Translations under genes and position numbers: made by a program
Part shown: positions 11,462 through 41,991 of the stretch, piece by piece
Position numbering within the stretch: position 1 is the stretch's first letter
Layout: every line of letters begins with the position of its first letter
Notes under the pieces: model-generated
Seen by the model: only the letters and a program-made list of their open reading frames with translations
Told to the model about the DNA's origin: nothing
Database searches by the model: none
Source: Chloroflexota bacterium
GTDB taxonomy: Bacteria > Chloroflexota > Limnocylindria > P2-11E
Assembly: GCA_005883625.1 (NCBI GenBank)
Contig: VBDU01000071.1
Coordinates: 89,439-153,438, forward strand
DNA: 64,000 nucleotides
Reading direction: 5' to 3'

Positions 11462-11476
11462 ACTCCTGCGCGGGAC

Positions 11477-21453: not shown

Positions 21454-22167
21454 GTGCCGTTCGCAGCGCTCGGTCGCGAGGCCGAGCGCATCGGGGTGCG
21501 GCTCACGCAGTCGCAGCTCGCGGACTGCGAGCGTTTCGCCGGTCTGCTCATCGAACGCAATACGACGGTGAACCTCACGGCGATCACCGAGCCGCTCGAC
21601 ATCGCTCGGAAACATTTCCTCGACTCCCTCACCGCGCTCGCCGTCCGCCGCTGGACCGGGCGCGAGTGGGTCGTCGACGTGGGCAGCGGCGCGGGCTTCC
21701 CCGGGCTCGCGCTGCGCATCGCGCGACCCGAGCTGCGCTTCACGCTCGTCGAATCGGTCGGCAAGAAGGCACGCTTCCTCGAAGAGGTCGTCGCGACGCT
21801 GGGGCTCACGAATGTCGAGCTGCGCAACGAGCGCGCGGAATCGCTCGCGCGGGAGCGGCGCGAGAGCTACGACGTGGGCACCGCGCGCGCGGTCGGTGCG
21901 CTCGCGGCCGTCGCCGAATATCTCCTGCCGTTCCTCCACGTCGGCGGCGACGCGATCGTCTGGAAGGGCCGCGTCGATGCGGAGCTTCCGGCCGCCCGCC
22001 GCGCGCTCGCCGCCCTCGGCGGCGAGCTCGTCTCCATCACGGCGACCGCGGCGCTCGGCCTCGAGACGGTGCTACCGGGGCGCGCGCTCGTCGTCATGCG
22101 AAAGGTGCGACCGACGCCGCGACGGTACCCGCGCGGTCCCGCCGAGGCGAAGCGCAAGCCGTGGTGA
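21454..22167 (+). CDS. rsmG: 16S rRNA (guanine527-N7)-methyltransferase RsmG
   Basis: LIERNTTVNLTAI...VVDVGSGAGFPGL are GidB-family motifs. GTG 21454 start. Confidence 0.85.
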   Translation: MPFAALGREAERIGVRLTQSQLADCERFAGLLIERNTTVNLTAITEPLDIARKHFLDSLTALAVRRWTGREWVVDVGSGAGFPGLALRIARPELRFTLVESVGKKARFLEEVVATLGLTNVELRNERAESLARERRESYDVGTARAVGALAAVAEYLLPFLHVGGDAIVWKGRVDAELPAARRALAALGGELVSITATAALGLETVLPGRALVVMRKVRPTPRRYPRGPAEAKRKPW

Positions 22168-22865
22168 TCGTCCCCTCGGTCGACGTGCGCGCGCGTCGCG
22201 TGGTCGGACCCCGCGAGACCGCCGACCCGCTCGTGCTCGCGCGGGCGCTCGTCGAGGACGGCGCCGAGGAGCTGCACCTGGTCGATCTCGACGGCGCCGA
22301 GGCCGGCGTCTTCGCGAACGCGACGCTCCTCGCCTCGGTCGCGCGCGCCTGCGGCGTGCCCTGCCGGCTCGCCGGCGGACTGTCCTCGGTGGACGAGGCG
22401 CGCGAGGCGATCGCGAACGGCTTCGCGGGCGTCCTCTTCTCGAGCGCCGTCCTCGGGGACGACGATCTCCTCCGCGATATCGCGCGTCTCGGCGCGGGCG
22501 CGGTCGTCGAGATCGAGTCGCGCGACGGCTTCCTCGCGCCGCGCGGCGGCGACCGCACGCTCGTCGAGGTCGCGACGGGGCGCGGAGTGCTCGCCGCGGC
22601 CCGCGCCGCGGTCCTGGCCGGCGTGCGCGCGCTCTACCTCATCGACCTCTCCGCGGAGGGCGGCCTCGCCGGTCCGCCGCTCGCGCTCGTGGACGCCGTG
22701 CGCGCGGTGGTCGGTCCGGGCATCGCGCTCCACGCGGGCGGCGGGATCCGCGATCTCGACGACGTACGCGCGCTCGCGCGGCGCGGCGTGGCGTCGGCGG
22801 TGATCGGCCGCGCGCTGGCGGAGGGGAAGTTCACGATCCGTCAGGCCAAGACCGTGGCGGCGTGA
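22161..22865 (+). CDS. HisA/HisF-family TIM-barrel protein
   Basis: GTG overlaps the rsmG stop (GTGA). HLVDLDGA...GGGIRDLDDV are HisA/HisF phosphate-binding motifs. Confidence 0.65.
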   Translation: MVIVPSVDVRARRVVGPRETADPLVLARALVEDGAEELHLVDLDGAEAGVFANATLLASVARACGVPCRLAGGLSSVDEAREAIANGFAGVLFSSAVLGDDDLLRDIARLGAGAVVEIESRDGFLAPRGGDRTLVEVATGRGVLAAARAAVLAGVRALYLIDLSAEGGLAGPPLALVDAVRAVVGPGIALHAGGGIRDLDDVRALARRGVASAVIGRALAEGKFTIRQAKTVAA

Positions 22866-23581
22866 AAGTAGCCCTGCTGTCGGACATCCACGCGAACCTC
22901 GTCGCGCTCGAGGCTGTCCTCGCCGCGATGGGTCCGGTCGACGCGCTGTGGGTGACGGGCGACTCCGTCGGCTACGGGCCCGATCCATCCGACGTCCTCG
23001 CGCTCCTTGGCGAGCGGCGGGCGACGCTGGTCGCCGGGAACCACGACCGGGCGGTCGCGACCGGACAGGGCCTCGAGCTGTTCAACCCCATCGCGGCGGC
23101 CGCGGTCCTGGTCCATCGCGAGTGGCTCAAGCCGGAGGAGTGCGACCTGCTCGCGGCGCTACCTGAGACGCTCGAGACCTCCGAGTTCACGCTCTGCCAT
23201 GGCAGCCTGCGCGATCCGCTGTGGGAGTACGTCTTCACGCCGCAGGCCGCGGCGGCGTCCTTCGCGCTCGCGAAGACGGCGCATTGCTGCGCCGGCCACA
23301 CCCACGTGCCCGGGCTGTACCGGCGCACCGCGACCGGCGTCGAGCCCCTGCGCGTCCGCGCCGAGACGCCCTATTCCCTCCTGGATCGGGCGTTCCTGAA
23401 CCCGGGGAGCGTCGGCCAGCCCCGGGACACCGACCCGCGGGCGTCGTACGCCGTGTTGGACCTGGACGACGGCACCGTGACCTTTCATCGTGCGTCCTAT
23501 CAAGTGGGTGAGACGCAGCGCCGGATCCGCGAACGGGGCCTTCCCGCGATCCTCGCGGACCGCCTTGCGTTCGGCATGTGA
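22862..23581 (+). CDS. metallophosphoesterase (YfcE-like calcineurin-fold)
   Basis: GTGA overlap start. LSDIHAN...GDSVGYG...GNHD...GHTH are MPP motifs. Confidence 0.8.
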   Translation: MKVALLSDIHANLVALEAVLAAMGPVDALWVTGDSVGYGPDPSDVLALLGERRATLVAGNHDRAVATGQGLELFNPIAAAAVLVHREWLKPEECDLLAALPETLETSEFTLCHGSLRDPLWEYVFTPQAAAASFALAKTAHCCAGHTHVPGLYRRTATGVEPLRVRAETPYSLLDRAFLNPGSVGQPRDTDPRASYAVLDLDDGTVTFHRASYQVGETQRRIRERGLPAILADRLAFGM

Positions 23582-24053
23582 CTTCATCGCCGTCGCCGTC
23601 CTGCTCGCGGCGTGCGCGGGGAACTCGGCGGTGAGCCCGGCGACGGAGCGCGTCCCGTTCACCGACCACGGCACGACGCAGATGTCGGGCAACGACGCTG
23701 GGCCGCGCGTCGTGGTCGCGACGGATGCACAAAGCGGTGCCGCGCTCGCGTCGCTCCTACCGTCGGTGCCGTCCGCGCCGGACCGCGTCTACATCGGCGT
23801 CTTCGCCGGCTCGCAGCGCACGGGCGGCTACGCGCTAAAAGTCGACGCGATCGAGCGCACCGGCGATCGCCTGACGGTGCGGGCGACGTTCACCGCGCCG
23901 GCGCCGGGCGCGCTCACGATCCAGGTCCTCACCTCGCCGGCGCAGCTCGTGTCGATCCCGAGCGCGAGCGCCGCGAGCGTGCGCGAGGTCGTGCTCGTCG
24001 ATCAATCGGGCGCCGAGCGGGCGCGCGGGAGCGTGACACAATCGCGTCCCTGA
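23490..24053 (+). CDS. putative lipoprotein; start uncertain
   Basis: Hydrophobic segment plus the lipobox LLAAC-AG. The only canonical in-frame start is ATG 23490, which overlaps the upstream gene by 92 nt. Confidence 0.45.
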   Translation: MRPIKWVRRSAGSANGAFPRSSRTALRSACDFIAVAVLLAACAGNSAVSPATERVPFTDHGTTQMSGNDAGPRVVVATDAQSGAALASLLPSVPSAPDRVYIGVFAGSQRTGGYALKVDAIERTGDRLTVRATFTAPAPGALTIQVLTSPAQLVSIPSASAASVREVVLVDQSGAERARGSVTQSRP

Positions 24054-24054
24054 C

Positions 24055-26112
24055 GTGACCGACGAGAAGGGGGACGACGAAGCCCCGCGAATACCGTCCC
24101 TCGAAGAGCGCACCACAAAGTCGGGCCGGCTTCCCGGCAACCGGTACGTCAGGATCCACCACAGCAGCGGGTTCCGCCGGCGCGGCGGTCTCTACGTCGC
24201 CGAGGAGGAGGCGCTCCGCCCCGCGAACGCGGCGGGCCGCGTCTACGACGTGATCCGCCGCATCCTCTTCGGTCGACCCCTTTCGACCGAAGCGGAGGAG
24301 GGTGAGCGTCTCTCCGTCTTGACGGGCCTCGCGATCCTCGGCTCCGACAACATCTCCTCGAGCGCGTACGCGACGGAAGAGGCAATGCGCGTCCTCGCGC
24401 TCGCGGGGATCGGCGCGTTCGTTTTCACGACGCCCATCGCCGTGGCCGTCGTGGGGGTCCTCGCGATCGTCGTGCTCTCCCAGTCCCAGGTGATCCGCGC
24501 GTACCCGAACGGCGGCGGCAGCTACATCGTGACGAGCGACAACCTCGGGACGCTGCCCGGGCTCGTGGCGGCCGCCGCGCTCCTCATCGACTACGTCCTC
24601 ACGGTCGCGGTCTCGACGGCCGCCGGCGTCCAGGCGATCTCGAGCTTCTATCCCGAGCTGCACGCGTACGTCGTGCAGGTCGGGCTCGTGTTCATCGCGC
24701 TTCTCATGATCGGCAACCTCCGCGGCGTGCGCGAGGCCGGGATCATGTTCGCCGGCCCGACGTACGTCTACATCGCGTCGCTCGCGGCGCTCTTGCTCTA
24801 CGGGTTCTTCCGCGTCGCGACGGGCGACGTCCCGCCCGCCGCGCTGCCTCCGCTGCCGTTCGGCACCGAGGGCGAGGTGACGCTCGCGGGTCCGGTCGGC
24901 GCGCTTCTCATCCTGCGCGCGTTCGCCTCGGGATCCGTCGGCCTGACCGGGAGCGAGGCGATCGCGAACGGCGTGCCGAGCATGGAGAAGCCGGAGCCGC
25001 GGAACGCGACGATCACGCTCGTCATCATGGGCATCACGTTCGCCACGATCTTCCTCGGGCTCACGTTCCTCGCGCAGACCATCGGCACGATCCCAGATCG
25101 CTCCGAGGTCGAGACGCTCAACAGCCTGGTCACGCGGTCGCTCGTCGGGATCTCACCCTTCTACTACCTCGTCCAGGGATCGACCGCGATCCTGCTCGCC
25201 CTCGCCGCGAACACCGGGTTCACCGGGTTCCCGCGCCTCGCGTCGGTCCTCGCGAACGATCGCTTCATGCCGCGGCAGTTCGCCTACCGCGGCGAGCGCC
25301 TTGCCTTCTCGTTCGGGATCGTCGCCCTCGCGGTGGTGTCGGGCCTCGTCCTCGCCGCCCGCAACGGCAGCGTGACCGAGCTCATCCCCTTCTACACGAT
25401 CGGCGTGTTCCTCGCCTTCACGCTGTCGCAGAGCGGGCTTGTCCGCCGATGGCGGCGTCTGCGGGTCCACGGCTGGCAATGGCGCACGGGGGTCAACGCG
25501 CTTGGCGCGGTCGTCACCGGCGTCGTGCTCGTCGTCGTGCTGGTCGCGAAGTTCAAGGAGGGTGCCTGGCTCATCCTCGTCGCCGTCCCGCTCATCGTCG
25601 CGCTGCTCCTCGCGATCCACCGCCACTACCGGCAGATGCAGGACGCCCTCGTCATCGAGCGGCTCGACGACGAGGTGGCCGAGCCGAAGCCGCCCATCGT
25701 CATCGTGCCGGTGGGCCGCCTCGACCGCGCCGCCGCGCGGGCGATCGCGTTCGCCCGGTCGATCTCGCCGGCGGTGAAAGCGGTGCACGTCGCGACGAGC
25801 GAGGAGAGCGCCAACGAGTTCCGCGAGCGCTGGGAGCGCTGGAAGGGCAAGGTGCCCCTCGACATCATCGAGTCGCCGTACCGCTCGCTCGTGCCGCCGC
25901 TCCTGCGATACATCGACGACATCGACAAGCGCGACGCGCGTCCGATCACCGTCGTCCTCGCCTCGTTCGTCCCGCACAGCTGGTGGGAGTGGCTGCTACA
26001 CAGCCAGACCGCCCTCCGGCTGAAGGCGTCGCTCCTTTTCCGGCCGAACACGATCGTCGTCGACGTCCCCTACCACTTCGACCACGGGCACGTCCCGGAG
26101 CAGCCCCGATGA
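24055..26112 (+). CDS. APC-superfamily transporter, KimA-like (often annotated amino-acid permease), with USP-like C-terminal cytoplasmic domain
   Basis: 685 aa. GSDNISSSAYATEE...AYPNGGGSY...LIDYVLTVAVS...LAANTGFTGFPRLASVLANDRFMPR...C-terminal IVIVPVGRLDRAA...VHVATSEE...NTIVVDVPYHF. Confidence 0.7.
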   Translation: MTDEKGDDEAPRIPSLEERTTKSGRLPGNRYVRIHHSSGFRRRGGLYVAEEEALRPANAAGRVYDVIRRILFGRPLSTEAEEGERLSVLTGLAILGSDNISSSAYATEEAMRVLALAGIGAFVFTTPIAVAVVGVLAIVVLSQSQVIRAYPNGGGSYIVTSDNLGTLPGLVAAAALLIDYVLTVAVSTAAGVQAISSFYPELHAYVVQVGLVFIALLMIGNLRGVREAGIMFAGPTYVYIASLAALLLYGFFRVATGDVPPAALPPLPFGTEGEVTLAGPVGALLILRAFASGSVGLTGSEAIANGVPSMEKPEPRNATITLVIMGITFATIFLGLTFLAQTIGTIPDRSEVETLNSLVTRSLVGISPFYYLVQGSTAILLALAANTGFTGFPRLASVLANDRFMPRQFAYRGERLAFSFGIVALAVVSGLVLAARNGSVTELIPFYTIGVFLAFTLSQSGLVRRWRRLRVHGWQWRTGVNALGAVVTGVVLVVVLVAKFKEGAWLILVAVPLIVALLLAIHRHYRQMQDALVIERLDDEVAEPKPPIVIVPVGRLDRAAARAIAFARSISPAVKAVHVATSEESANEFRERWERWKGKVPLDIIESPYRSLVPPLLRYIDDIDKRDARPITVVLASFVPHSWWEWLLHSQTALRLKASLLFRPNTIVVDVPYHFDHGHVPEQPR

Positions 26113-28148
26113 CCGACGAAGAAAAGCCTGAGACCCCCTCGCTCGAAAAGCGCGTCACCAGCCACGGACGCCACGTCGGCGACCGCTACGTGCGGATCGT
26201 CCGCCCGGTCGGCAGCGGGCTCCGCGGGCACGGCGGTCGCTATCTCGCCACCGAGGAGACGATGGCGGCGCGGGGTCCGGTGGCACGCGCCCTCGAGCGC
26301 GTCGCGCAGCTCTTCATCGGCAAGCGGCTCGAATCCGAGGCCGAGGCCGAGGAGCGCGTCGGCGTCGCGACTGGGCTCCCCATCCTCGCCTCGGACAACG
26401 TCTCGTCATCCGCCTACGCGACCGAGGAGGCGATGCGGATCCTCGCCATCGCGGGCACGGCGGCGCTCGCGCTCACGATGCCCATCGCGCTCGCGGTCGT
26501 GTTCGTCCTGGCGATCGTGGTCCTGAGCGAGTCGCGGGTGATCCGGGCGTACCCGAACGGCGGTGGCAGCTACCTCGTCGCACGCGAGAACCACGGCGTC
26601 ATCGCCGGTCTCGTGGCAGCGTCAGCGCTGCTCATCGACTACGTGCTCACGGTGGCCGTTTCCACCGCCGCCGGCGTCGCCGCGATCTCGAGCTTCATGC
26701 CCGAGCTCCATTCACAGCGCGTCGAGATCGGGGTCGGCCTCATCGCGCTGCTGGCCATCGCGAACCTGCGCGGCGTGCGCGAGGCCGGAGTCCTCTTTGC
26801 GGCCCCGACCTACGCGTACATGGCCGCGATGTTCGCGCTCATCGCGTACGGCCTGTACCGGATCTCAACGGGCGATCTGCCCGCCGCGGTCACGCCGCCC
26901 GACCCGTTCGATCCCGCGGGCACCGCGCCCCTCGGGATCCTTCTCGTGCTCCGCGCGTTCGCATCCGGCTCCGTAGGCCTGACCGGCAGCGAAGCGATCG
27001 CGAACGGCGTGCCGAGCTTCCGCAGACCGGAGACACGGAACGCCGTGATCACCCTCGTGCTCATGGGGACGATCTTCGCCACGATCTTCATCGGCCTGAC
27101 CTTCCTGGTCACTCGCATCGGCATCCAGCCGGACCAGAGCGAGACCGAGACCCTGAACAGCATGCTCACGCGCTCGGTCGTGGGCGGCGGGACGCCGTTC
27201 TATCTCTTCGTTCAGCTTTCGACCGCCGTGATCCTCCTCCTCGCTGCGAACACCGGCTTCACCGGCTTCCCACGCCTCGCCTCTGTGCTCGCGAACGACC
27301 GGTTCATGCCGCGGCATTTCGCCGACGTCGGCTCGCGCCTCGCCTTCAGCACGGGGATCGCCTCTCTCGCGGCGCTTGCTGGCGTGATCCTCATTGCCTT
27401 CGACGGCAGCGTGAACAAGCTGGTGCCGCTCTACACGATCGGCGTGTTCCTCGCATTCACGCTCTCGCAATCCGGGCTGGTCCGGCGGTGGTGGCACCTC
27501 CGCAATCCCGGCTGGCGCGCGTCGATCGTGATCAACGGTTTTGGCACGGTCGTCACCGGCACGGTCTTGCTCGTGGTCGCGATCACGAAGTTCACGCTCG
27601 GGGCATGGATGGTCCTCATCCTCCTTCCCGTCCTCGTGGCGCTGCTTTACGCGGTCAACCGTCATTACCGAACGGTGCAGGACGCGCTCGTCCTCTCGGG
27701 CGGCGAGCAGCGCATCCCTGTGTTTGGCGCGCCGGTCGTCATCGTGCCCGTGGCGCGGCTCGACCGCGCAGCGATCCAAGCGCTGGCGTTCGCGCGCTCC
27801 GTCTCGCCGAACGTGAAAGCGGTCCACATCTCGACCTCGCGCGAGAGCGCTGACGAGTTCCGCGCGCGCTGGCGCCGGCTTGGGATCGAGATCCCCCTCG
27901 ACGTCGTCGAGTCGCCGTTCCGTTCGCTCGTCCCTCCGCTCCTCCGCTACATCGACGCGATCGACAAGTCGGACGACCGTCCCATTACCGTCGTCGTGAG
28001 CGAGTTCGTCCCGCGCCACTGGTGGGAGTGGCTCCTTCACAGCCAGACGGCGTTCCGCCTCAAGGCCGCGCTTCTCTTCCGGCCGAACACGATCGTGGTC
28101 GACGTGCCGTATCACTTTAGTGACACCGCCGACCTCACCCGGGGCTAG
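26109..28148 (+). CDS. second KimA-like APC-superfamily transporter (tandem paralog)
   Basis: ATGA overlap start; 679 aa; collinear with the upstream gene. Confidence 0.7.
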   Translation: MTDEEKPETPSLEKRVTSHGRHVGDRYVRIVRPVGSGLRGHGGRYLATEETMAARGPVARALERVAQLFIGKRLESEAEAEERVGVATGLPILASDNVSSSAYATEEAMRILAIAGTAALALTMPIALAVVFVLAIVVLSESRVIRAYPNGGGSYLVARENHGVIAGLVAASALLIDYVLTVAVSTAAGVAAISSFMPELHSQRVEIGVGLIALLAIANLRGVREAGVLFAAPTYAYMAAMFALIAYGLYRISTGDLPAAVTPPDPFDPAGTAPLGILLVLRAFASGSVGLTGSEAIANGVPSFRRPETRNAVITLVLMGTIFATIFIGLTFLVTRIGIQPDQSETETLNSMLTRSVVGGGTPFYLFVQLSTAVILLLAANTGFTGFPRLASVLANDRFMPRHFADVGSRLAFSTGIASLAALAGVILIAFDGSVNKLVPLYTIGVFLAFTLSQSGLVRRWWHLRNPGWRASIVINGFGTVVTGTVLLVVAITKFTLGAWMVLILLPVLVALLYAVNRHYRTVQDALVLSGGEQRIPVFGAPVVIVPVARLDRAAIQALAFARSVSPNVKAVHISTSRESADEFRARWRRLGIEIPLDVVESPFRSLVPPLLRYIDAIDKSDDRPITVVVSEFVPRHWWEWLLHSQTAFRLKAALLFRPNTIVVDVPYHFSDTADLTRG

Positions 28149-28160
28149 ACTCCCGCACTC

Positions 28161-28589
28161 ATGCACCCGAAGCGCATCCTCGTGGCGCTCGCCGGCTCGA
28201 GCGCCGACCCCGATGTGATCCGTCTCGTGGCCTCCATCGCCAAGCCGGGCCGGTCGCAGGCCATCGGCATCCACGTCATCGAGGTCCGCTGGAACCTGCC
28301 GCTCGACGCGGTCCTCGAGAACGAGCTCGACCGCGGCGAGGAGCTGCTCGACGGCGCGAAGAAGGTCGCCGAGCAAGCGGGGCTCGCGCTCGAGACCGAG
28401 ATGCTCCAGGCGCGCGAAGCGGCCGCGGCGATCATCGACACCGCGGTCGAGCGGCAATGCGACCTCATCGTCGTGGCGATGCCCTTCCGCAAGCGTTTAG
28501 GCAAGGTGTACATCGGCCGCACCGTGCAGAACGTGTACGTGAACGCGCCGTGCGCGGTCCTCGCGTATCGTCAGGAAGAGATCAAATGA
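28161..28589 (+). CDS. universal stress protein (UspA family)
   Basis: 142 aa; ILVALAGSSADPDVIRLVASIA...CDLIVVAMP. Confidence 0.85.
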   Translation: MHPKRILVALAGSSADPDVIRLVASIAKPGRSQAIGIHVIEVRWNLPLDAVLENELDRGEELLDGAKKVAEQAGLALETEMLQAREAAAAIIDTAVERQCDLIVVAMPFRKRLGKVYIGRTVQNVYVNAPCAVLAYRQEEIK

Positions 28590-29089
28590 ACGTCGTCATT
28601 GTCGGCTGCGGACGCGTCGGCGGCTTCCTCGCCGGGCTCCTCGACACCGAGGGTCACCACGTGAGCGTGGTGGACATCGCGTCCACGAGCCCGGCGCGCG
28701 CCGAGCGCGCCTGGTTCCAGCACCTGCCGTCGACGTTCAAAGGGGAGACGATCCTCGGCGACGGGACGGACCTCGAGATCCTCCGTCAGGCCGGCGTCGA
28801 GAAGGCCGACGCGCTCCTCGCCCTCACCGAGGGCGACAACCGCAACCTCATGGCGGCGCAGATCGCGCAGAAGATCTTCGGCGTGCGGCGAGTCGTTGCG
28901 AAGGTGAACGACCCCGTGCGCGCACAGATCTACCGCCGCCAGGGCATCGACACGTTCTCGCGCACGACGATCCTCGGTACCCTGCTCTTCGCGATGCTCA
29001 TGGAGGACCGCGAGGTCGGCGAGGTCCTCATCAAGAAGTCACTCGAGCACGAGAAGGAGCTCGCGCACGAGCCGGCGCCGGCGGGCTAG
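28586..29089 (+). CDS. TrkA-N (RCK N-terminal, NAD-binding) domain protein
   Basis: ATGA overlap start. MNVVIVGCGRVGGFLAGLL has the GxGxxG Rossmann motif. Confidence 0.8.
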   Translation: MNVVIVGCGRVGGFLAGLLDTEGHHVSVVDIASTSPARAERAWFQHLPSTFKGETILGDGTDLEILRQAGVEKADALLALTEGDNRNLMAAQIAQKIFGVRRVVAKVNDPVRAQIYRRQGIDTFSRTTILGTLLFAMLMEDREVGEVLIKKSLEHEKELAHEPAPAG

Positions 29090-29746
29090 ATGTACTTCAT
29101 CGTCGCCGGCGCCGGCGAGGTCGGATTCCACCTCGCGCAGGCTTTGCTCGAGGCGGGCCACGAGGTGACGGTCATCGAGGCGGATCGCCGGCGTGCGAGC
29201 TTCGTGCAGGAGAAGCTCGGCTCGATCGTGCTCAACGAAGCGGCGGACGAGGGCCGCGCGCAGATGGAGGCGGGCTGCTCCCGCGCCGACGCGCTCGTCG
29301 CGGTCACCGGCGACGACGCGAAGAACCTCGTCATCTGCCAGCTCGCGAAGCATCACTGCCACACGCCGCGCGTGATTGCTCGGGTGAACAACCCGAAGAA
29401 CGAGATCGTTTTCAAGACGCTCGGCATCGACGAGACGATCTCGTCCACGCGCGTGCTCATGAGCGTGATCGAGCAGGAGCTGCCCACCGGGGGCTTCCTG
29501 CCGCTCATGCCGCTCACCGGCTCGCAGCTCGAGCTCATCGAGGCCGAGATCGCGCCCGGCACGCCCGCCGCGGGGAGGACCGTGGGCGGTCTCAAATTGC
29601 CGAGCGGCGCGGTCGTGGGGGGCCTCGTCCGTCGCGGCAAGGTCGTGCATCCGCACGACGAGACGAAGCTCGAGGTCGGCGATCGCGTCATCGTCTTCGC
29701 GCCGACCGCCACCGAGGGCGAGGTCCGCAAAGCGCTCTTCGGCTAG
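29090..29746 (+). CDS. TrkA/KtrA-like K+ transport regulatory protein (RCK_N + RCK_C)
   Basis: MYFIVAGAGEVGFHLAQAL..., with C-terminal TrkA_C segment LIEAEIAPGTPAAGRTVGGLKLP...DRVIVFAP. Confidence 0.85.
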   Translation: MYFIVAGAGEVGFHLAQALLEAGHEVTVIEADRRRASFVQEKLGSIVLNEAADEGRAQMEAGCSRADALVAVTGDDAKNLVICQLAKHHCHTPRVIARVNNPKNEIVFKTLGIDETISSTRVLMSVIEQELPTGGFLPLMPLTGSQLELIEAEIAPGTPAAGRTVGGLKLPSGAVVGGLVRRGKVVHPHDETKLEVGDRVIVFAPTATEGEVRKALFG

Positions 29747-29784
29747 CGATTTGACTCGGCGCGAAAGCGCCCGAGCATCGCAGG

Positions 29785-30783
29785 GTGTTGCGCGCCGCCC
29801 GCCTTGCGCTCGTCGCGTCGGCGGCCGCCTCGCTCGGCGTCGTCGCGGTCATCCTCACGCGCGCGAGCGCTGCCTCCCCGTACCTCCTGCTCTTCGGCCT
29901 CGCGGCCGCCGACTTCGTGGCGTCGGCGCGGACCCTTGAGCGGGACCGGCGCCGCGGAGTCCTGTTCGCCTGGGGTGGCGCGCTGTCGCTCGCGGGGATG
30001 GGAACGCTTGCCGGCCTCGGCGCCGGCGACGTGACGTTCCCCGCCGCCGCGCTCGGGATCGTGGCCGCGGTCCTCGCGTCGCTGGTGCCACCGTCGCGTC
30101 GCGTGCTCGTCGCGGTCGCGGTCTACGTCCTCGTCGGCATCGCGGTCAGCGCGCCCCGCCTTCCCGGGCTCCTGGCGTTCCCCTTCCTCGTGCCGAGTCT
30201 CCTCCTCTGGCCCCTCATGCTGGCGCTGGGCCCCGGCGCGCTCGCGATCTTCGCCGTCATCGGCTTGGGGATCGGCCTGACGGTGGCCGCGCTCGCGCCG
30301 GCGCTACCGGCACCGCGGCCGCGCCGGCCGCTCGCGCTCGTGGCCGGGCTCGTCGCCGCGGTCGCAGCCGATGCGATCGAGATCGCGCTGGCCGTCGCGC
30401 AGCCGCACACGAGCGCGCGGGCCGAGCTCGGCGTCCTCCCGCTCGCGGTCCTCTTCGTCGCGGGTGCGCTCTTCGGTGCGGGGGCCGTCCTCGCGATGAG
30501 CCGCGCGGGCGGCGGGCTGGTCGCGACCACCCTCGGTGGCGCGGTGCTCGTCTACGCGCTCTTCTCGCGGCCGACCGTGGAATGCTTCGGCAACGGCGTC
30601 GCGACCTCCGGCGGACCGTGGTGGTTGCCCGCGCTCGGTGCGCTCAGCTCGTCCGGTGGCGGGTCCGGGTCGTCGTCCGGCGGTCCCGGCGGTGTGGCGG
30701 GCACGATCAATCGGAGCGACGGCGTGACGATCACATACCGCTGCGAGGGCGATCGGCTCGTGGAGTTCGAGATCCGCCGCTAG
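29785..30783 (+). CDS. hypothetical polytopic membrane protein with Gly/Ser-rich linker and small C-terminal domain
   Basis: 332 aa with 8 or more hydrophobic helices, then SSGGGSGSSSGGPGG and a 30-aa tail. GTG start. Confidence 0.5.
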   Translation: MLRAARLALVASAAASLGVVAVILTRASAASPYLLLFGLAAADFVASARTLERDRRRGVLFAWGGALSLAGMGTLAGLGAGDVTFPAAALGIVAAVLASLVPPSRRVLVAVAVYVLVGIAVSAPRLPGLLAFPFLVPSLLLWPLMLALGPGALAIFAVIGLGIGLTVAALAPALPAPRPRRPLALVAGLVAAVAADAIEIALAVAQPHTSARAELGVLPLAVLFVAGALFGAGAVLAMSRAGGGLVATTLGGAVLVYALFSRPTVECFGNGVATSGGPWWLPALGALSSSGGGSGSSSGGPGGVAGTINRSDGVTITYRCEGDRLVEFEIRR

Positions 30784-31229
30784 ACGTGATACGGCACGTC
30801 GATGACGATCGTGTTCGGACGCGACACAAGGCGAAGTTTGAGCCGCAGCGCCGCCCGGTTGTGCAGGAGGTAGCTCCACCGGGCGCGAGGCACGACGCCC
30901 GACAGGACGATCGCGAGCGGCCGCGCCGGATCGCCATCGGTGAGGGTGTCGAGATGGGTCTCGAGCGCCTTCGCGGCATCGCAGCGCGATCTCACCACCA
31001 CGAGGTCCATCGCCGGTCCTGGATCGAGCCTCGTCCAGGAGCGCCGGATGCGCTCGGCTCCCGCGTCGTCATTCGTGACGTGCACGACCGAGACGTGCGC
31101 CGCGATGGAGCGCGCGTAGCCGAGCGCACGGATGGTGGGTCGATCGAGCCTCGCGATTGGAACCACGACGCGCATTCCGACGCGCCCCCGACGCAGCGCG
31201 CATTGTGAGGCGGGCGCGAGTGCTCCCAT
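30780..31229 (-). CDS. stand-alone USP-like domain homologous to the C-terminal cytoplasmic domain of the KimA-like transporters
   Basis: VVVPIARLDRPTIRALGYARSIAAHVSVVHV...PNTIVIDVPYHV aligns with IVIVPVGRLDRAAARAIAFARSISPAVKAVHV...PNTIVVDVPYHF of the genes at 24055 and 26109. Alternative internal start near 31175. Confidence 0.6.
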   Translation of the reverse strand: MGALAPASQCALRRGRVGMRVVVPIARLDRPTIRALGYARSIAAHVSVVHVTNDDAGAERIRRSWTRLDPGPAMDLVVVRSRCDAAKALETHLDTLTDGDPARPLAIVLSGVVPRARWSYLLHNRAALRLKLRLVSRPNTIVIDVPYHV

Positions 31230-31310
31230 CGTCGATCGAGAGTCCCCGACGCGCGCTCAACGGTGTGTCAACGACATGCCTTCGCCCCTTAACGTTCGCT
31301 CAAAACGTCG

Positions 31311-32033
31311 CTAGAGGTCGTCGGAGCGGAAGCGGTAGCCCACGCCGGGCTCGGTCTCGAGATGCTTCGGCGCCTGCGGGTCGTCTTCGATCTTGCGCCG
31401 CAGGCGCGCGACGTACACGTGGAGGTAGTGCGACTCGTCGCCGTAATCGGGCCCCCACACCTGCTGCAGCAGCATCCGGTCGGTGAGGACTTTGTTCGGG
31501 TTCGTGATGAACACCTTGAGGAGGTCGTACTCGGTGGGCGTCAGGTGCACCACGCGGCCGGCGACCGAGACGTCGCGGCGCTCGAGGTCGATGACGAGAT
31601 CGCCGCTGCGGATCCGCGGCTCCGCGCCCGCGTTCGGGCGTGCGACGTGCCGCAGCGCGACGCGGATGCGGGCGAGGAGCTCGTCGATCCCGAACGGCTT
31701 CGTCATGTAGTCGTCCGCGCCGCTGTCGAGCGCCGTCACCTTGTCCTCTTCGCCGCCACGCGCCGAGAGCACGATGATCGGCGTTCCCGATCGCTCTCGG
31801 ATGTGCCGCACGACCTCGAAGCCGTCGCCGTCGGGAAGGTTGAGGTCGAGGACGACGAGGTCGGGCGGGCGCCGGTCGTACGTCGCCTTCGCGTCGGCGC
31901 CGGTCTCCGCGGTCTCGACCTGAAAGCCGTGGCCGCGGAGATTTGTCCGCAGCGTGCGCACCATCGCCGGCTCGTCGTCGACCACGAGGAGGCGCGCGCC
32001 GGCGGGCTCGGCGCGGGCAAGGTCGGGTCTCAC
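31311..32033 (-). CDS. OmpR-family response regulator (KdpE-like)
   Basis: GTG overlaps the kinase stop (GTGA on the minus strand). LLVVDDEPAMV...LVVLDLNLPDGDG...winged helix YVARLRRKIE. The long Arg-rich upstream extension of track ORF 31311..33347 is excluded. Confidence 0.85.
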   Translation of the reverse strand: MRPDLARAEPAGARLLVVDDEPAMVRTLRTNLRGHGFQVETAETGADAKATYDRRPPDLVVLDLNLPDGDGFEVVRHIRERSGTPIIVLSARGGEEDKVTALDSGADDYMTKPFGIDELLARIRVALRHVARPNAGAEPRIRSGDLVIDLERRDVSVAGRVVHLTPTEYDLLKVFITNPNKVLTDRMLLQQVWGPDYGDESHYLHVYVARLRRKIEDDPQAPKHLETEPGVGYRFRSDDL

Positions 32034-33556
32034 CTCGCGCTTACCGGCAGCGTGAACACGACCCGGGTCCCCTCCGGCACCTCCCGGTCGACCCAGATCG
32101 ATCCGCGGTGCGCCTCCACAAGGCGCTTCGCGATCGCCAGCCCGAGTCCGACGCCGCGCGTGCGCAGGCCCTGCCGGTCGAGGCGCACGAACGGCGCGAA
32201 GATGCGCTCCGCGTCCGCCTCCGGGATCCCGGGGCCGTGGTCGGTCACCGCGAAACGGACGTCGCCGTTCGCGGGAGAGACGCTGATCCCGATCGCGGAT
32301 CCGGGCGGCGAGAACTTCGCGGCATTCTCGACGAGATTGGCGAGGACCTGCTGGATCTCGACATAGTCGAGCTCGACAGGCGGCAGGTCGTCCGGCACTT
32401 CGAGGTCCACAGGATGTCCCGCGGTCACCGGCCGCAGCCGTCCCGCGACGTCCTCGACGAGGGCTCCCACGTCGTGCCAGGCCTTGTGCGGCACCAGGCT
32501 CCCGTTCTCGATGCGCGAAAGGTCGAGGAGATTGCCGACGACGCGGTCGAGACGCAGCGCCTCGTCCCGGATCGCCCCGACGAATTCGTCGCGCTCGCGT
32601 TCGGTCCAGGCGACGTCGCGCTGCAGCAGGCTGCCCGCCGAGGCGAGGATCGACGCGAGCGGCGTCCGGAGCTCGTGCGAGACCGCGTGGAGGAGCTCGG
32701 TCTTGAGGTCGTCGGCGCGGCGCAGCACCTCGGTCTCCAAGGCGTCCTTGCGGAACCGCGCGCGCTCCATCGTGACGCCGAGCTGCGCCGCACCGATCGC
32801 GAGGAGACGCTCGTCGGCCGGTCCGAGCTCGCGCGCGTCGGTGCGCGCGAGGAGGAGAAGCCGGCCGACGTGCTTTCCGGAGACCGTGATCGGCACGAGG
32901 TGCACCCGCCGCTCGCGGCCACGTCCCGGCAGCCGGGCGCCGACCAGGCGGATCCGGCGCGACGGTCCGCGGCGGGGATCCATGAGCCGCAGCTCCGTGC
33001 CGGTCGCGTGCAGGGCCTCGCGCGAGGGCTCGTCGCGCGCGGCGACGGCGGACCGCTCGAGCATCCCGGGATCGGACTCGATCGCGACCGCGTCGAGGTC
33101 CAGCGCCGCGCGGAAGTGCTCCGCGACCGCCGCGAGCGCCCGCTCGAGGTCGGGATCGGCCATGAGCAGCGCCGCCTCGTACAGGAGCGTCGCTTCGCGC
33201 TCGCGCGCCTTCGCCTCCTCGGCGCGCGCGCGCTCGCGCGCGGCCAGTGTCCCCGTCACGACCGCGGTCATGAGGAAGAGCGCGAGCGAGAACAGCTCTT
33301 CGGCGTCCGCCACGACGAGCTGGTGGGTCGGTGGCACGAAGAACCAATCAAAGGTGAGGAAGGCGAGCAGGCTCGCCGCGATCGCGGCGGCCCGCCCGAA
33401 CGCGACGGCCACGAGGAGCACCGCGACGAGATACAGCATGGAGATGTTCGCGAGCTGCGTCCTGCCGACGACGAGCCCGATGAACACGCTCGTGAGGGCG
33501 ACGCCCACGATCGCGGCGACGTACGGGATGAGACGTCGCATGGCTCGATCTCGCAT
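32030..33556 (-). CDS. KdpD-like sensor histidine kinase lacking the N-terminal KdpD/Usp sensor region (DUF4118 TM - GAF - HisKA - HATPase)
   Basis: LTFDWFFVPP is the KdpD TM-domain signature. H-box AVSHELRTPL with N, G1 and G2 boxes intact. Starts at ATG MRDRAM; the track ORF upstream extension is low complexity. Confidence 0.8.
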   Translation of the reverse strand: MRDRAMRRLIPYVAAIVGVALTSVFIGLVVGRTQLANISMLYLVAVLLVAVAFGRAAAIAASLLAFLTFDWFFVPPTHQLVVADAEELFSLALFLMTAVVTGTLAARERARAEEAKAREREATLLYEAALLMADPDLERALAAVAEHFRAALDLDAVAIESDPGMLERSAVAARDEPSREALHATGTELRLMDPRRGPSRRIRLVGARLPGRGRERRVHLVPITVSGKHVGRLLLLARTDARELGPADERLLAIGAAQLGVTMERARFRKDALETEVLRRADDLKTELLHAVSHELRTPLASILASAGSLLQRDVAWTERERDEFVGAIRDEALRLDRVVGNLLDLSRIENGSLVPHKAWHDVGALVEDVAGRLRPVTAGHPVDLEVPDDLPPVELDYVEIQQVLANLVENAAKFSPPGSAIGISVSPANGDVRFAVTDHGPGIPEADAERIFAPFVRLDRQGLRTRGVGLGLAIAKRLVEAHRGSIWVDREVPEGTRVVFTLPVSAR

Positions 33557-33557
33557 C

Positions 33558-34886
33558 TTAGACCGCGCTCGCTTGCTCGACGCCCGGCAGCGCGAGTCCC
33601 GCCGCCACGCTGGTGAACGCGGCGGCGTCGCGGGTGGACGCGTCGGGCAGGAGCGACCGCATGAGCGCGCGGAAGGCCGGGATCGCGCTCGAGCCGCCGG
33701 TATACACGATCTCCCCGATCCCGCCGGCCTCGAGCCCGGCGACATCGAGCACCTCATGGACGAGCGCGGCGGTCTCGTCGAGCAGCGGTGCGACGAGCCG
33801 CTCGAAGCGGCCGCGCACGATCCGGGCGTCCACGTCGACCGCGGCGTGGTGGTACGAGAGGATCGCGCTTGCCTGCGTCGAGAGCTCGCACTTGGTCGCG
33901 TCGGCGGCGCGGAAGATCTCATAGCCGAGCTGCAATTCGATCGCGCTGCGCAGTGCGGCAAGCTCGCGCTTCGGCGCGCCCGCGCGCACGAGGTCGTCGA
34001 GCGCGTCGAGGAGCGGCTTTTCGTTCAGCGCCGAGAGCGCGTGCCAGTCGCGGAGCGCGTTCACGATGTAGCGCGGCAGCGCGAGCCGCTTGGGACCCCA
34101 CCGCGCGCGCGAGCCGAGGAACGGCGCGATCGCATCGTCGATGACGAGCTCCGTCGCGCGGTCGCCGCCGATCGGGCCGCCCGCGGTCGCCAGGACGCGT
34201 AGCCCGCGCGCGTCGCGCCGCACGACGCAGAGGTCGAGCGTTCCGCCGCCGAAGTCGAACACCAGGCTCGTGCCCTCGGCCGTGGCCGCGGCGTGCGCGG
34301 CGGCGATGGGCTCCGGCACGAAGTGGACCTCAGAAAAGCCGGCGAGCTCCGCGGCCACCCGCAGACGCGCCGTCGCGCGGTCGTCGGCTCCAGGCGGTCC
34401 GCTGAAGCGCACAGGTCGACCGAGCGTGACCGCCTCAGGGGCGATGCCGACAAGCTCTCTTGCGCGGGCGCGCACGTGCGCAAGGACCAGGGCGATCAGA
34501 TCTTCAAGGCCTTTCGCATCCCCAAAGACGTTCGTCCGTGTGTCGAGCGGATCCCCGAGAAAGGTCTTGAGCGCCTGGAAGAGCCGGCCGGGGGCGCTCG
34601 TGTCCGTGAGGATGTAGGCCTCGAGGCTCTTGTGGGTCCAGTCCGTGGAGGGGAGGCGGATGCCGAGCATCTGCACTTGACGCCGAAGCGGTCCGCGGTC
34701 GCGGTTGTCCGACAGATACTCGTCGATGGCCCGTCGGCCGACGATCGGCGTGCCGTCTCGCCGGATGTACAGGACCGTCGGCAGCGTTTCACCCGCGATC
34801 GGGTCAAGCGGCAGCACGCGGACAGCGGCGCCGTCGAACGCGGCGAGCGACGTGTTGGACGTGCCGAAATCCAGACCGAAGCGCAC
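33558..34886 (-). CDS. Hsp70-family ATPase-domain-only protein (short DnaK-like)
   Basis: 442 aa with GLDFGTSNTSLA...VFDFGGGTLD...VYTGGSSAIPA, the actin-fold phosphate / adenosine motifs. No substrate-binding domain. Confidence 0.7.
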   Translation of the reverse strand: MRFGLDFGTSNTSLAAFDGAAVRVLPLDPIAGETLPTVLYIRRDGTPIVGRRAIDEYLSDNRDRGPLRRQVQMLGIRLPSTDWTHKSLEAYILTDTSAPGRLFQALKTFLGDPLDTRTNVFGDAKGLEDLIALVLAHVRARARELVGIAPEAVTLGRPVRFSGPPGADDRATARLRVAAELAGFSEVHFVPEPIAAAHAAATAEGTSLVFDFGGGTLDLCVVRRDARGLRVLATAGGPIGGDRATELVIDDAIAPFLGSRARWGPKRLALPRYIVNALRDWHALSALNEKPLLDALDDLVRAGAPKRELAALRSAIELQLGYEIFRAADATKCELSTQASAILSYHHAAVDVDARIVRGRFERLVAPLLDETAALVHEVLDVAGLEAGGIGEIVYTGGSSAIPAFRALMRSLLPDASTRDAAAFTSVAAGLALPGVEQASAV

Positions 34887-35057
34887 GGGCCGACCAGAGT
34901 ACGGCCCAGCTGCCGGCCAAGCAGGCCGCCGCCCGAAACCCTCTCTACGCGGCGGTATCCCCGTCCTCGGTCGGCCGGGGACCCCTCCGCCGCGCGGGGG
35001 CCCTCGGTCGGCGGCCTGCTCCGCCGCTCCCGGGCCTTCTGTCGAGGAGGAAGAGTC

Positions 35058-35086
35058 TTGACAACGGCATTGTTAGGTTTTATAGA
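35058..35086 (+). promoter_or_regulatory. sigma-A-type promoter for the hspR operon; the predicted TSS coincides with the GTG start (leaderless)
   Basis: TTGACA (35058-63), 17-nt spacer, TATAGA (35081-86). GTG start at 35093. Confidence 0.45.
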
Positions 35087-35092
35087 AAGAAG

Positions 35093-35491
35093 GTGGCCTT
35101 AGGACGTCGACCCGTCTACGTCATCTCGATCGCCGCGGGCCTGGCCGGCTGTCACCCGCGCACGCTCCGGATCTACGAGGAGGAAGGCCTGCTCGAGCCG
35201 GTGCGCACGCAGACCAACATACGGCTCTACTCCGACGACGACCTGGAGCGCGTTCGCGCCATCCGGTACCTCACGCAGATCCGGGGCGTGAACCTTGCGG
35301 GCGTCAAGCTCCTGCTCCAGCTCCGCGACGCGACCGAGCTCCTTCGCGAGATCGGCGAGGAGCTCGCGACGCAGGACGAGGCCCCGGCCGCGCAGGCGGC
35401 GGTCTATCAGGAACGGGGCGACGAGACGGCGAACGACGCGGGGCGCCCGCGGCCACGAAATCGCTCGCGCCGAAATGGCGTTGAGCTCTAA
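35093..35491 (+). CDS. hspR: MerR-family heat-shock repressor HspR
   Basis: VYVISIAAGLAGCHPRTLRIYEEEGLLEPVRTQTNIRLYSDDDLERVRAIRYLTQ resembles the HspR HTH. Confidence 0.75.
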   Translation: MALGRRPVYVISIAAGLAGCHPRTLRIYEEEGLLEPVRTQTNIRLYSDDDLERVRAIRYLTQIRGVNLAGVKLLLQLRDATELLREIGEELATQDEAPAAQAAVYQERGDETANDAGRPRPRNRSRRNGVEL

Positions 35492-35506
35492 AAGAGGAGG
35501 CAACCT

Positions 35507-36009
35507 ATGACGCTCGCTCTCTTCAGCCCCAGCACCGACGTCGTGTCTCTCCGCGAGGCCATGGATCGTCTCTTCGAGGACAGCTTCACCCGGCCGAACG
35601 GGTGGTCCGGTCTGGTTTCCGGCCAGGTCGGCGTGCCGGTGGACCTCTGGGAGACGAAGGACGCATACCACCTTCGCGCGGACCTGCCCGGTCTGACCGC
35701 GGAGGACATCGAGATCAACGCCACGAGCGACACGATCACGTTCGGCGGCGAGATCAAGGCGCAGGCGGACGCCACGGAGGACAGCTGGCTCCGTCAGGAG
35801 CGGCGCGCCGGGAAGTTCCAGCGCGCCTTCACCCTGCCGGTGCAGATCGACCCGAACAAGGTCGAGGCGAAGTTCACGAACGGCGTTCTGGAGCTCGTGG
35901 TCCCGAAGGCCGAGAGCACCAAGCCGCGGACGATCAAGATCAACGCGAATAGCACAACAAGTAGCCAAGTCACGCAAGCAGTCAAGTCGCTTAAGGAAAG
36001 AGAGCTCGA

Positions 36010-36013
<4 letters not shown>
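35507..36013 (+). CDS. Hsp20/alpha-crystallin-family small heat-shock protein
   Basis: 168 aa with an ACD domain (...AYHLRADLPGL...FTLP...NGVLELVVPK). RBS AAGAGGAGG. Confidence 0.9.
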
Positions 36014-38442
<2,429 letters not shown>

Positions 38443-38455
38443 CCGGAGGACCGCC

Positions 38456-39444
38456 ATGCCGGTCGAGTACAAGGACTACTACAAGATCCTCGGGGTGGGA
38501 AAGAACGCCACCACCGAGGACATCAAGAAGGCGTACCGCAAGCTCGCGCGCCAGCACCACCCGGACGTCAACAAGAAGCCGGAGGCGGAGCGCCGCTTCA
38601 AGGAGATCAACGAGGCCAACGAGGTCCTCAGCGATCCCTCCAAGCGCAAGCGCTACGACACCGTGGGTCCGGACTGGGAGCGCTACGCCTCGGGCATGGG
38701 CGGTCAGCCTGGTGGGGGGTCGGGATTCCATTGGGTGTACAACGGGCCGCCCGGCGCGAATCCCTTCGGCACCGACGCGGCCGGGTTCTCCGACTTCTTC
38801 CGGACGCTGTTCGGCGACGCCGGCAACGGCGGATTCGCCGACGCCGACGATCTGCTCGGCCGGACGCGGACGCGGACGCGCTCGCGAGCGCGCGCGCGAC
38901 CGGGCGAGGACGTGGAGGCCGAGGTCGAGGTCACGCTCGCCGAGGCGTACAAGGGGACCGAGCGCGTCGTCGAGATCGCGCGCGAGAACGGCGGCGGCCC
39001 GCGACGGCTCAGCGTCAAGATCCCGGTGGGCGTCCGCGACGGGCAGCGCATCCGGCTCGCGGGTCAGGGCCTTCCCGGTTCGGGCGGCGGCGCGTCGGGC
39101 GATCTCTACCTGCGCGTCCGCGTGAAGCCGCACCCCTTCTTCACGCGCGACGGGGACGACCTCCGCGCCGAGCTGCCGGTCGCGCTGCACGAGGCCCTGC
39201 TCGGTGGCGAGGTCACCGTCCCCACGCTGAAGGGGCGGGTCACGCTTCGCATCCCGCCCGAGACACAGAACGGGCGCGTCATCCGGCTCGCCGGCCAGGG
39301 GATGCCCCGCACGACCGGCGGCTTTGGCGACTTGTATCTGACGATCAAAGTAATCCTGCCGACGAAGCTGTCGGAAAAGGAGCGGGAGATGGCGAAGGAG
39401 CTCGCCGCCGCGCGCGGGAACGAGAACGTCAGGAGTCATCTTCT

Positions 39445-39448
<4 letters not shown>
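38456..39448 (+). CDS. J-domain chaperone CbpA/DnaJ-like (no zinc finger)
   Basis: YYKILGV...HPD (J-domain), a G/F-rich region and C-terminal DnaJ_C domains. RBS GGAGGA. Confidence 0.85.

Positions 39449-41991
<2,543 letters not shown>

Follow-up and report, generated by a model that had tools for sequence, protein, structure and literature searches.

A putative potassium-uptake locus of a Limnocylindria-type Chloroflexota genome, with KimA transporters encoded beside a TrkA pair and a truncated KdpDE-like system

We analyzed a 64-kb stretch of DNA from a soil Chloroflexota bacterium of the Limnocylindria lineage (contig VBDU01000071.1; the whole stretch is called the window here), and within it the locus at positions 24055-33556, which we read as a potassium-uptake locus that probably consists of two modules set side by side: module A on the forward strand (24055-29746) and module B on the reverse strand. 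In module A, the transporters KimA1 and KimA2, from the KimA branch of the KUP family, would be K+/H+ symporters, and the proteins TrkA1 and TrkA2 would form a two-subunit octameric nucleotide-binding ring like TM1088A/B of Thermotoga maritima. This ring, possibly with the universal stress protein (Usp) encoded in the same module, would act on KimA dimers in place of a TrkH/KtrB channel and tune K+ uptake to the adenine- or nicotinamide-nucleotide state of the cell, while the KimA cytosolic domain would keep a nucleotide pocket of its own, similar to the cyclic di-AMP (c-di-AMP) pocket. Module B would be a K+-responsive two-component system made of the membrane and kinase half of KdpD and a KdpE-like regulator, whose native target would be a third kimA gene immediately downstream, switched on via four GTTGAG direct repeats; in the window genome this kimA3 appears to have lost its membrane domain, with only an open reading frame (ORF) for the C-terminal domain left. 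We give this overall explanation a probability of about 55%. An earlier note on the same DNA had proposed a K+ island: the K+ genes do lie together, and they are better read as two juxtaposed modules.

Genes in the window, whose G+C content is 70%, were called from the codon-position GC pattern with start codons set by eye, and domains were assigned to the locus with Pfam and NCBIfam scans. Its features are as follows.

24055-26112, forward: kimA1, KimA-type putative K+/H+ symporter paralogue, 685 aa; PF13520, 85 bits; GTG start
26109-28148, forward: kimA2, KimA-type putative K+/H+ symporter paralogue, 679 aa; PF13520 family (AA_permease_2); ATG start
28161-28589, forward: usp, stand-alone UspA-like universal stress protein, 142 aa; PF00582, 56.6 bits
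28586-29089, forward: trkA1, short subunit with RCK_N (TrkA_N) only, 167 aa; PF02254, 84 bits
29090-29746, forward: trkA2, long subunit with RCK_N and RCK_C, 218 aa; PF02254, 96.9 bits, and PF02080, 52.5 bits
29785-30783, forward: polytopic ORF of no family, 332 aa
30780-31229, reverse: kimA3 remnant, a 149-aa ORF for the KimA C-terminal cytosolic domain alone
31256-31304, reverse: four direct hexamer repeats, between the regulator stop codon and the start of the kimA3 remnant
31311-32033, reverse: KdpE-like OmpR-family response regulator, 240 aa; PF00072 and PF00486
32030-33556, reverse: KdpD-like histidine kinase, 508 aa; PF13493 (DUF4118), PF00512 (HisKA) and PF02518 (HATPase_c)

The five genes kimA1-kimA2-usp-trkA1-trkA2 constitute one translationally coupled operon, as their 4-bp overlaps and abutting stop and start codons indicate. 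Specifically, the kimA2 ATG overlaps the kimA1 stop codon by 4 bp (ATGA), the trkA1 start overlaps the usp stop codon by 4 bp, and the trkA2 ATG at 29090 abuts the trkA1 stop codon at 29087-29089. The Pfam and NCBIfam assignments agree with the inventory of the earlier note, whose UspA, TrkA-N and TrkA (RCK_N and RCK_C) are all borne out by Pfam domains; the 332-aa and 149-aa ORFs inside the interval had gone unmentioned.

KimA1 and KimA2, which are 64% identical to each other, are true full-length KimA homologues rather than generic amino-acid permeases, so the KimA type proposed for them earlier stands. In a phmmer search of the PDB, KimA2 matched Bacillus subtilis KimA (6s3k) with E=3.9e-133 and 448 bits, its residues 65-671 aligning to residues 5-606. 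The residues reported to coordinate or transport K+ in KimA (D36, Y43, D117, T121, S125, T230, E233 and Y377) are identical at all eight positions in KimA1, KimA2 and the KimA3 of the related locus L003. Among 85 collected homologues, T230 is either Thr or Ser and the other seven positions do not vary, truncation gaps aside. KimA1 and KimA2 are very probably K+ transporters, and they may well operate by K+/H+ symport. B. subtilis KimA (YdaO; PDB 6s3k and 8b70) belongs to the same length class, with a 12-helix LeuT-fold domain followed by a swapped cytosolic domain; identity to the window proteins is ~40% over the whole protein, the K+-site residues are identical, and most residues of the c-di-AMP pocket are shared. 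The window proteins differ from it in a 60-aa N-terminal extension, in occurring as tandem paralogues, in lacking a ydaO riboswitch, in being encoded with Usp and a TrkA pair, and in four pocket or relay changes (N580S, S582T, F565V/L and W592F).

The TrkA pair has its best or near-best structural relatives in T. maritima TM1088A and TM1088B (PDB 3l4b). TrkA1 finds its best PDB match in TM1088A, the short subunit (RCK_N only, 143 aa), and Pfam detects no TrkA_C in TrkA1; TrkA2 matches Vibrio TrkA (1e-37) and TM1088B, which also has 218 aa. Both window proteins carry a nucleotide-binding GxGxxG motif, GCGRVG in TrkA1 and GAGEVG in TrkA2. The T. maritima genes are likewise coupled, the short RCK_N-only subunit preceding the 218-aa subunit with RCK_N and RCK_C, and their products were reported to build a two-subunit octameric ring; the same assembly can be predicted for TrkA1 and TrkA2. 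The paper that described TM1088A/B noted homologues in Actinobacteria, Dehalococcoides and Mycobacterium tuberculosis. The two systems differ in the neighboring membrane protein, which is KimA (APC/LeuT fold) in the window and the TrkH protein TM1089 in T. maritima. The usp gene keeps its position in the Limnocylindria relatives and in loci L024 and L031.

The association of TrkA with KimA extends over two phyla. A KimA alignment scan that took one genome per GTDB species gave 80 loci from many phyla, in which TrkA neighbors were identified by tblastn with the window proteins. TrkA lies beside KimA in 21 of the 80 loci (17 of 23 in Actinomycetota, 4 of 18 in Chloroflexota and none of the 39 others), at a median distance of 93 bp. 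The usual actinomycete arrangement is a TrkA-TrkA pair divergent from KimA; two TrkA paralogues beside KimA were confirmed by Pfam in L046 and L073, with RCK_C in both paralogues of L073 and in only one of L046. Compared with the window, where a single operon holds them, the actinomycete TrkA and KimA genes mostly diverge, and Usp is missing there. In a neighbor-joining tree, the TrkA-linked KimAs comprise an actinomycete clade, the neighboring Limnocylindria clade and a small Anaerolineales group.

No TrkH was found near these loci. A phmmer search with E. coli TrkH (E<0.01) gave no match among ORFs of at least 80 aa in the window and in KimA loci L001-L083, a single-sequence query within 10 kb of the loci that could miss very distant relatives, and PF02386 is not listed in the precomputed annotation of the relatives' neighborhoods. 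The window itself was scanned directly with Pfam in 39 genes, which include all called genes of at least 400 aa except 18617-20122 (this gene corresponds to one with a precomputed SpoIID match in same-genome contigs), and no family match to KdpA, KdpB, KdpC or PF02386 was obtained in the scanned genes, in agreement with the earlier statement that the window lacks kdpFABC and trkH/ktrB. Published work on actinomycetes points in the same direction. Streptomyces venezuelae reportedly has two KimA-like genes and lacks TrkH, KtrB and KtrD, and its RCK_C protein Vnz_27460 has the locus tag next to that of the KimA-like Vnz_27465, which fits the divergent layout of the actinomycete loci. In M. tuberculosis, the two TrkA-type proteins CeoB and CeoC adjoin a large membrane-protein gene, Rv2690c, in keeping with the same layout, and transposon sequencing gave ceoB and Rv2690c a common rifampicin-survival phenotype. 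The suggestion of the earlier note that the RCK proteins act on the KimA-like carriers gains support from synteny, namely the operon, the linkage over two phyla and the lack of TrkH near the loci; the coupling itself, whether physical or functional, is an inference, and we put functional coupling of a TrkA ring to KimA at roughly even odds.

The most serious competing explanation is that the TrkA ring serves a partner encoded elsewhere (TrkH/KtrB, a CglK/MchK-type channel or a CPA2 antiporter), that KimA is autonomous as in Bacillus, and that trkA sits in the kimA operon only through co-expression of K+-uptake functions. Several facts speak for it and weigh against a ring acting on KimA. Clustering of K+ genes can reflect co-regulation only; KimA of Bacillota works with no RCK partner, and none of the 18 Bacillota loci has TrkA near KimA. 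Among solved structures, the nearest kin of the window pair, TM1088A/B, depend on the TrkH encoded next to them, TM1089. In M. tuberculosis, a co-essentiality analysis links ceoB and ceoC to the CglK/MchK-type channel gene Rv3200c and not to Rv2690c, and the trkA and mchK mutants of Mycobacterium smegmatis have similar phenotypes. Ten long KimA homologues include no KimA-RCK fusion. In addition, that Rv2690c is a KimA homologue is our assumption from its annotation and position. On the other side, no TrkH was found within 10 kb of the KimA-TrkA loci, and the linkage recurs over two phyla in both divergent and co-directional form, at a median distance of 93 bp. Likewise, S. venezuelae, which is reported to lack TrkH, KtrB and KtrD, retains an RCK_C gene next to one for a KimA-like protein; CglK/MchK-type channels bear an RCK domain of their own; and ceoB shares its transposon phenotype with the gene adjoining it. 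We consider this alternative credible and less probable than a ring that acts on KimA.

Comparison with close relatives separates the locus into its two modules. The nearest homologues, 77-87% identical, come from soil metagenomes and from metagenome-assembled genomes labelled Chloroflexota or Candidatus Limnocylindria, and several ENA soil metagenome assemblies hold contigs with an identical KimA2 and the same gene order. The arrangements compared are these.

L086: forward, kimA1, kimA2, usp, trkA1, trkA2; reverse, kimA3 (682 aa), response regulator, histidine kinase, Hsp70-like gene
L003: forward, one kimA, usp, trkA1, trkA2; reverse, full kimA3 (672 aa), response regulator, histidine kinase
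L001 and the window: forward, kimA1, kimA2, usp, trkA1, trkA2; reverse, C-terminal-domain ORF (147-149 aa), response regulator, histidine kinase
L085: forward, kimA1 remnant (145 aa), kimA2, usp, trkA1, trkA2; reverse, histidine kinase, response regulator and kimA3 all absent

Module A (kimA-usp-trkA1-trkA2) is kept in every Limnocylindria relative compared, and in L085 its kimA1 has an internal deletion that joins KimA1 residues 1-76 to 606-679. Module B (histidine kinase, response regulator and kimA3) is intact, decayed or, in L085, lost whole, and behaves as a unit of its own. The KdpDE-like pair is better read as the partner of a third kimA, of which only the C-terminal domain survives in the window genome.

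The 149-aa ORF matches the C-terminal domain of KimA, with 42% identity to KimA2 across it. It occupies the position and strand of the full-length kimA3 of L003 and L086 and retains DNA-level homology to the 3' end of the L086 gene. At the protein level it shares 52% identity with the KimA3 domain of L086 but only 33% with the remnant in L001, which points to independent truncations in the window and in L001. Both genomes have a complete stand-alone C-terminal domain ORF behind an intact kimA3 promoter and repeat region. We considered that the stand-alone domain might be a functional regulator, for instance one that pairs with the domains of KimA1 or KimA2, since the ORF and the upstream repeats are intact, and did not adopt this reading because internal-deletion remnants of KimA are common and the public gene call in a same-genome contig covers only 76 aa of the ORF. 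Remnants of KimA paralogues recur at L001 13668-14111 (reverse), L085 9567-10004 (forward), L065 9180-9681 (reverse) and L035 9386-9733 (reverse).

The two regulatory proteins of module B are closest to KdpD and KdpE. For the regulator, the best NCBIfam model is KdpE (251.5 bits, below the 325-bit equivalog cut-off), followed by MtrA (208.5), and the best PDB match is E. coli KdpE (234 bits), followed by the RegX3 family (168); KdpE thus leads in both databases, as expected from the earlier label. The kinase is best matched by the NCBIfam KdpD model, at 227 bits and below the equivalog cut-off, over model positions 397-883 of 895. Its Pfam scan returns only DUF4118, HisKA and HATPase_c, with no KdpD-N or Usp domain, and by this content it is the C-terminal half of KdpD: the DUF4118 membrane domain, a linker, HisKA and HATPase_c. 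The earlier description of a KdpD-like kinase stripped of its N-terminal and Usp region is upheld; for the GAF domain named there Pfam gives no match, although the KdpD model does run continuously through that part of the kinase. The closest known counterparts are KdpD-KdpE of E. coli and Staphylococcus aureus, from which the window pair differs in lacking the KdpD N-terminal/Usp sensor, in having no kdpFABC nearby and an adjacent putative target in kimA, and in scores that fall under the NCBIfam equivalog cut-offs for both proteins. KdpA, KdpB and KdpC gave no match in the neighborhoods of the Limnocylindria relatives either. The same pairing occurs farther afield, with KdpE-like and KdpD-like genes flanking KimA in L017, L041, L072 and L082 (Actinomycetota and Acidobacteriota).

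The gene downstream of the regulator is kimA3 or its remnant, and the interval between the two holds the hexamers TTTGAG, GTTAAG, GTTGAC and GTTGAG at start-to-start spacings of 11, 21 and 11 bp. Sites for OmpR-family regulators usually consist of hexamer direct repeats spaced 11 bp apart, and the E. coli KdpE site presumably has this layout too, as one such pair. The exact pattern GTTGASN5GTTGAG occurs only once in the 64 kb (31256-31272); when as many as two mismatches are allowed, its total number in the window is no higher than expected by chance. In related loci, the paired repeat with at most one mismatch in total was found at nine further places, six at the syntenic site (carried by L001, L002, L003 and L086) and three elsewhere. 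The actinomycete loci L072 and L082 have GTCAAG-N5-GTTAAG and GCTAAG-N5-GTTAAC after their KdpE-like genes and upstream of KimA. The four repeats look like a candidate operator of the KdpE-like regulator, with position rather than frequency as the argument, and the regulator may bind them. No copy of the GTTGAG repeats was found upstream of module A. Between 20 and 36 kb, sites that fit promoter or terminator consensus sequences were no more numerous than in shuffled sequence. The putative signal of module B is K+.

It is improbable that the genes are neighbors with no common function, the kinase and regulator controlling unrelated genes and Usp and the TrkA proteins being general stress or redox proteins. 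This idea could draw on the kinase-regulator pair being co-oriented with an Hsp70-like gene, 1 nt apart, beside a heat-shock cluster (the regulator and kinase genes overlap at their junction, and the kinase gene begins 1 nt after the stop codon of the Hsp70-like gene), on the regulator's sub-cut-off score, and on kimA1, whose GTG begins 1 nt past the stop codon of an unrelated upstream PrcB_C gene. It is countered by the translational coupling inside module A, by the retention of that module in every relative and the loss of module B as a block in L085, by the independent occurrence of both pairings in other phyla, and by conserved repeats in the very gap that separates the regulator gene from kimA3. 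Least probable of all, to the point of being hardly tenable, is that KimA1 and KimA2 are APC-superfamily amino-acid or polyamine permeases unrelated to K+: AA_permease_2 is indeed their only above-threshold Pfam match (KimA1 has a sub-threshold PF02705 match besides PF13520) and public annotation calls homologues 'APC family permease' or 'amino acid transporter', but KimA is itself an APC-superfamily member, so a match to this general model is expected, and the full-length alignment, cytosolic domain included, and the wholly conserved K+ site contradict it. The public permease names are generic and do not contradict a KimA identity.

The individual components (KimA, the two-subunit TrkA and the KdpDE proteins) are members or close relatives of known families. 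In the literature searched, we found no description of a locus that combines a TrkA ring with KimA but has no TrkH, nor of a KdpDE pair that lacks the Kdp-specific half and is wired to kimA. Somewhat short of even odds, and therefore offered tentatively, is the broader proposal that two-subunit TrkA rings are dedicated cytoplasmic KimA regulators in Actinomycetota and part of Chloroflexota, that Rv2690c-like proteins are the missing membrane component of mycobacterial CeoBC, and that in these lineages N-terminally stripped KdpDE systems control a kimA in place of kdpFABC. If TrkA rings do regulate KimA, actinobacterial 'Trk' (CeoB/CeoC) would have a KUP-family carrier and not a TrkH channel as its membrane subunit, and the CeoB/CeoC mutants of M. 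tuberculosis, where the system is studied for drug tolerance and host adaptation, would read differently, as would any inhibitors. It would also be the first RCK ring to act on a LeuT-fold transporter, bringing APC-superfamily carriers under the RCK control known for channels and CPA antiporters, and a truncated KdpDE acting on kimA would show the re-use of a K+ sensor where there is no Kdp pump. Which membrane protein partners actinobacterial TrkA/CeoBC thus becomes a directly testable question.

The earlier note had placed the transporters, the RCK proteins and the Kdp-type proteins under a common c-di-AMP theme; for the accessory proteins this is not borne out, and only in KimA is the putative pocket largely conserved. 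In KimA1 and KimA2 the pocket residues R337, Y118, N237, P479, H579, Q581 and F568 are conserved, next to the four substitutions listed above, of which the Thr at 582 is likewise found in S. aureus KimA. The pocket is similarly conserved in all KimA clades, and the idea that TrkA-linked KimAs had lost it was rejected on this ground. Among the accessory proteins, neither TrkA1 nor TrkA2 has a strict or relaxed match to the published RCK_C c-di-AMP signature of the KtrA/KtrC/CpeA type, (I/L)(I/L)X2DX1RX5N(I/L)(I/L), and a review citing unpublished data states that the S. venezuelae RCK_C protein Vnz_27460 does not bind c-di-AMP. Two motifs have been published for Usp domains, the KdpD-type c-di-AMP motif (A/G/C)XSXSX2N(Y/F) and the ATP-binding UspFG motif G-X2-G-X9-G-(S/T). 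The window Usp has no KdpD-type motif, its N-terminal loop ALAGSSADPD failing to fit, and no ATP motif of the form G-x2-G-x9-G-[ST]. An Rfam scan of the whole window gave neither a ydaO c-di-AMP riboswitch nor any other Rfam family.

The C-terminal cytosolic domain of KimA1 and KimA2, which had been described as USP-like and ~190 aa long, is present and measures ~150 aa. Its counterpart is the cytosolic domain of KimA, described as PPAT-like, to which it aligns, and it has no match to Pfam Usp (PF00582). KimA homologues with two such domains in tandem also exist: P0123 and about 20 other representatives, 750-800 aa in length, where residues 490-618 and 635-765 of P0123 are each 40% identical to the KimA2 C-terminal domain. 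At the other end of the protein, KimA1 and KimA2 carry an N-terminal cytoplasmic extension of ~60 aa (window 24055-24240 and 26109-26300), with a conserved motif P-x-L-E...G-D-R-Y-V-R-I that recurs in L003, L004, L005, L018, L024 and L031. The extension is confined to Limnocylindria-type Chloroflexota and is missing in the KimAs of Bacillota and actinomycetes; as a correlate of TrkA linkage it was rejected, since it does not track it. Another long homologue, P0166 (1041 aa), is KimA-like over residues 11-611 and has a DUF4118 domain, the membrane domain of KdpD-type kinases, at 824-926. This fusion may be a Rosetta-stone link that ties KimA to KdpD-like sensing, or possibly a gene-calling artefact.

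The 332-aa ORF is lineage-specific and stands outside the conserved system. It is Ala/Gly/Leu-rich and polytopic, has a strong coding-type codon-position GC pattern and no Pfam family, and is called as a gene in same-genome contigs. It amounts to ~1 kb inserted after trkA2 and ahead of the kimA3 remnant in this genome only, being absent at this position from L001, L003, L085 and L086 and without a tblastn match in any locus. No KimA membrane-domain remnant is detectable beneath it, which identifies it as an insertion rather than a scrambled kimA3.

On the kinase side, the Hsp70-like gene (33558-34886, reverse) is divergent from a heat-shock cluster of MerR/HspR-like, Hsp20, Lon, DnaJ and ClpB genes (region 33558-41991). 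No stretch nearby is AT-rich except the intergenic region at ~35051-35100, where TTGACA...TATAGA occurs; since the kinase gene follows the Hsp70-like gene after 1 nt and this intergenic region is shared, the KdpDE-like operon may be read through from a heat-shock promoter. Upstream of kimA1 (21454-24055), the PrcB_C-domain gene is preceded by overlapping GidB, HisA-like and metallophosphoesterase genes. L001, L003 and L086 have an equally tight PrcB_C/kimA1 junction, and module A may therefore belong to a longer transcript. Farther away, at 8652-14271 on the forward strand, four consecutive genes encode large polytopic membrane proteins of 436-500 aa, three without a Pfam match and one with a weak PMT_2 match. 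Together with adjacent glycosyltransferase and LPG_synthase_TM genes, they are probably a cluster for glycan or lipid modification.

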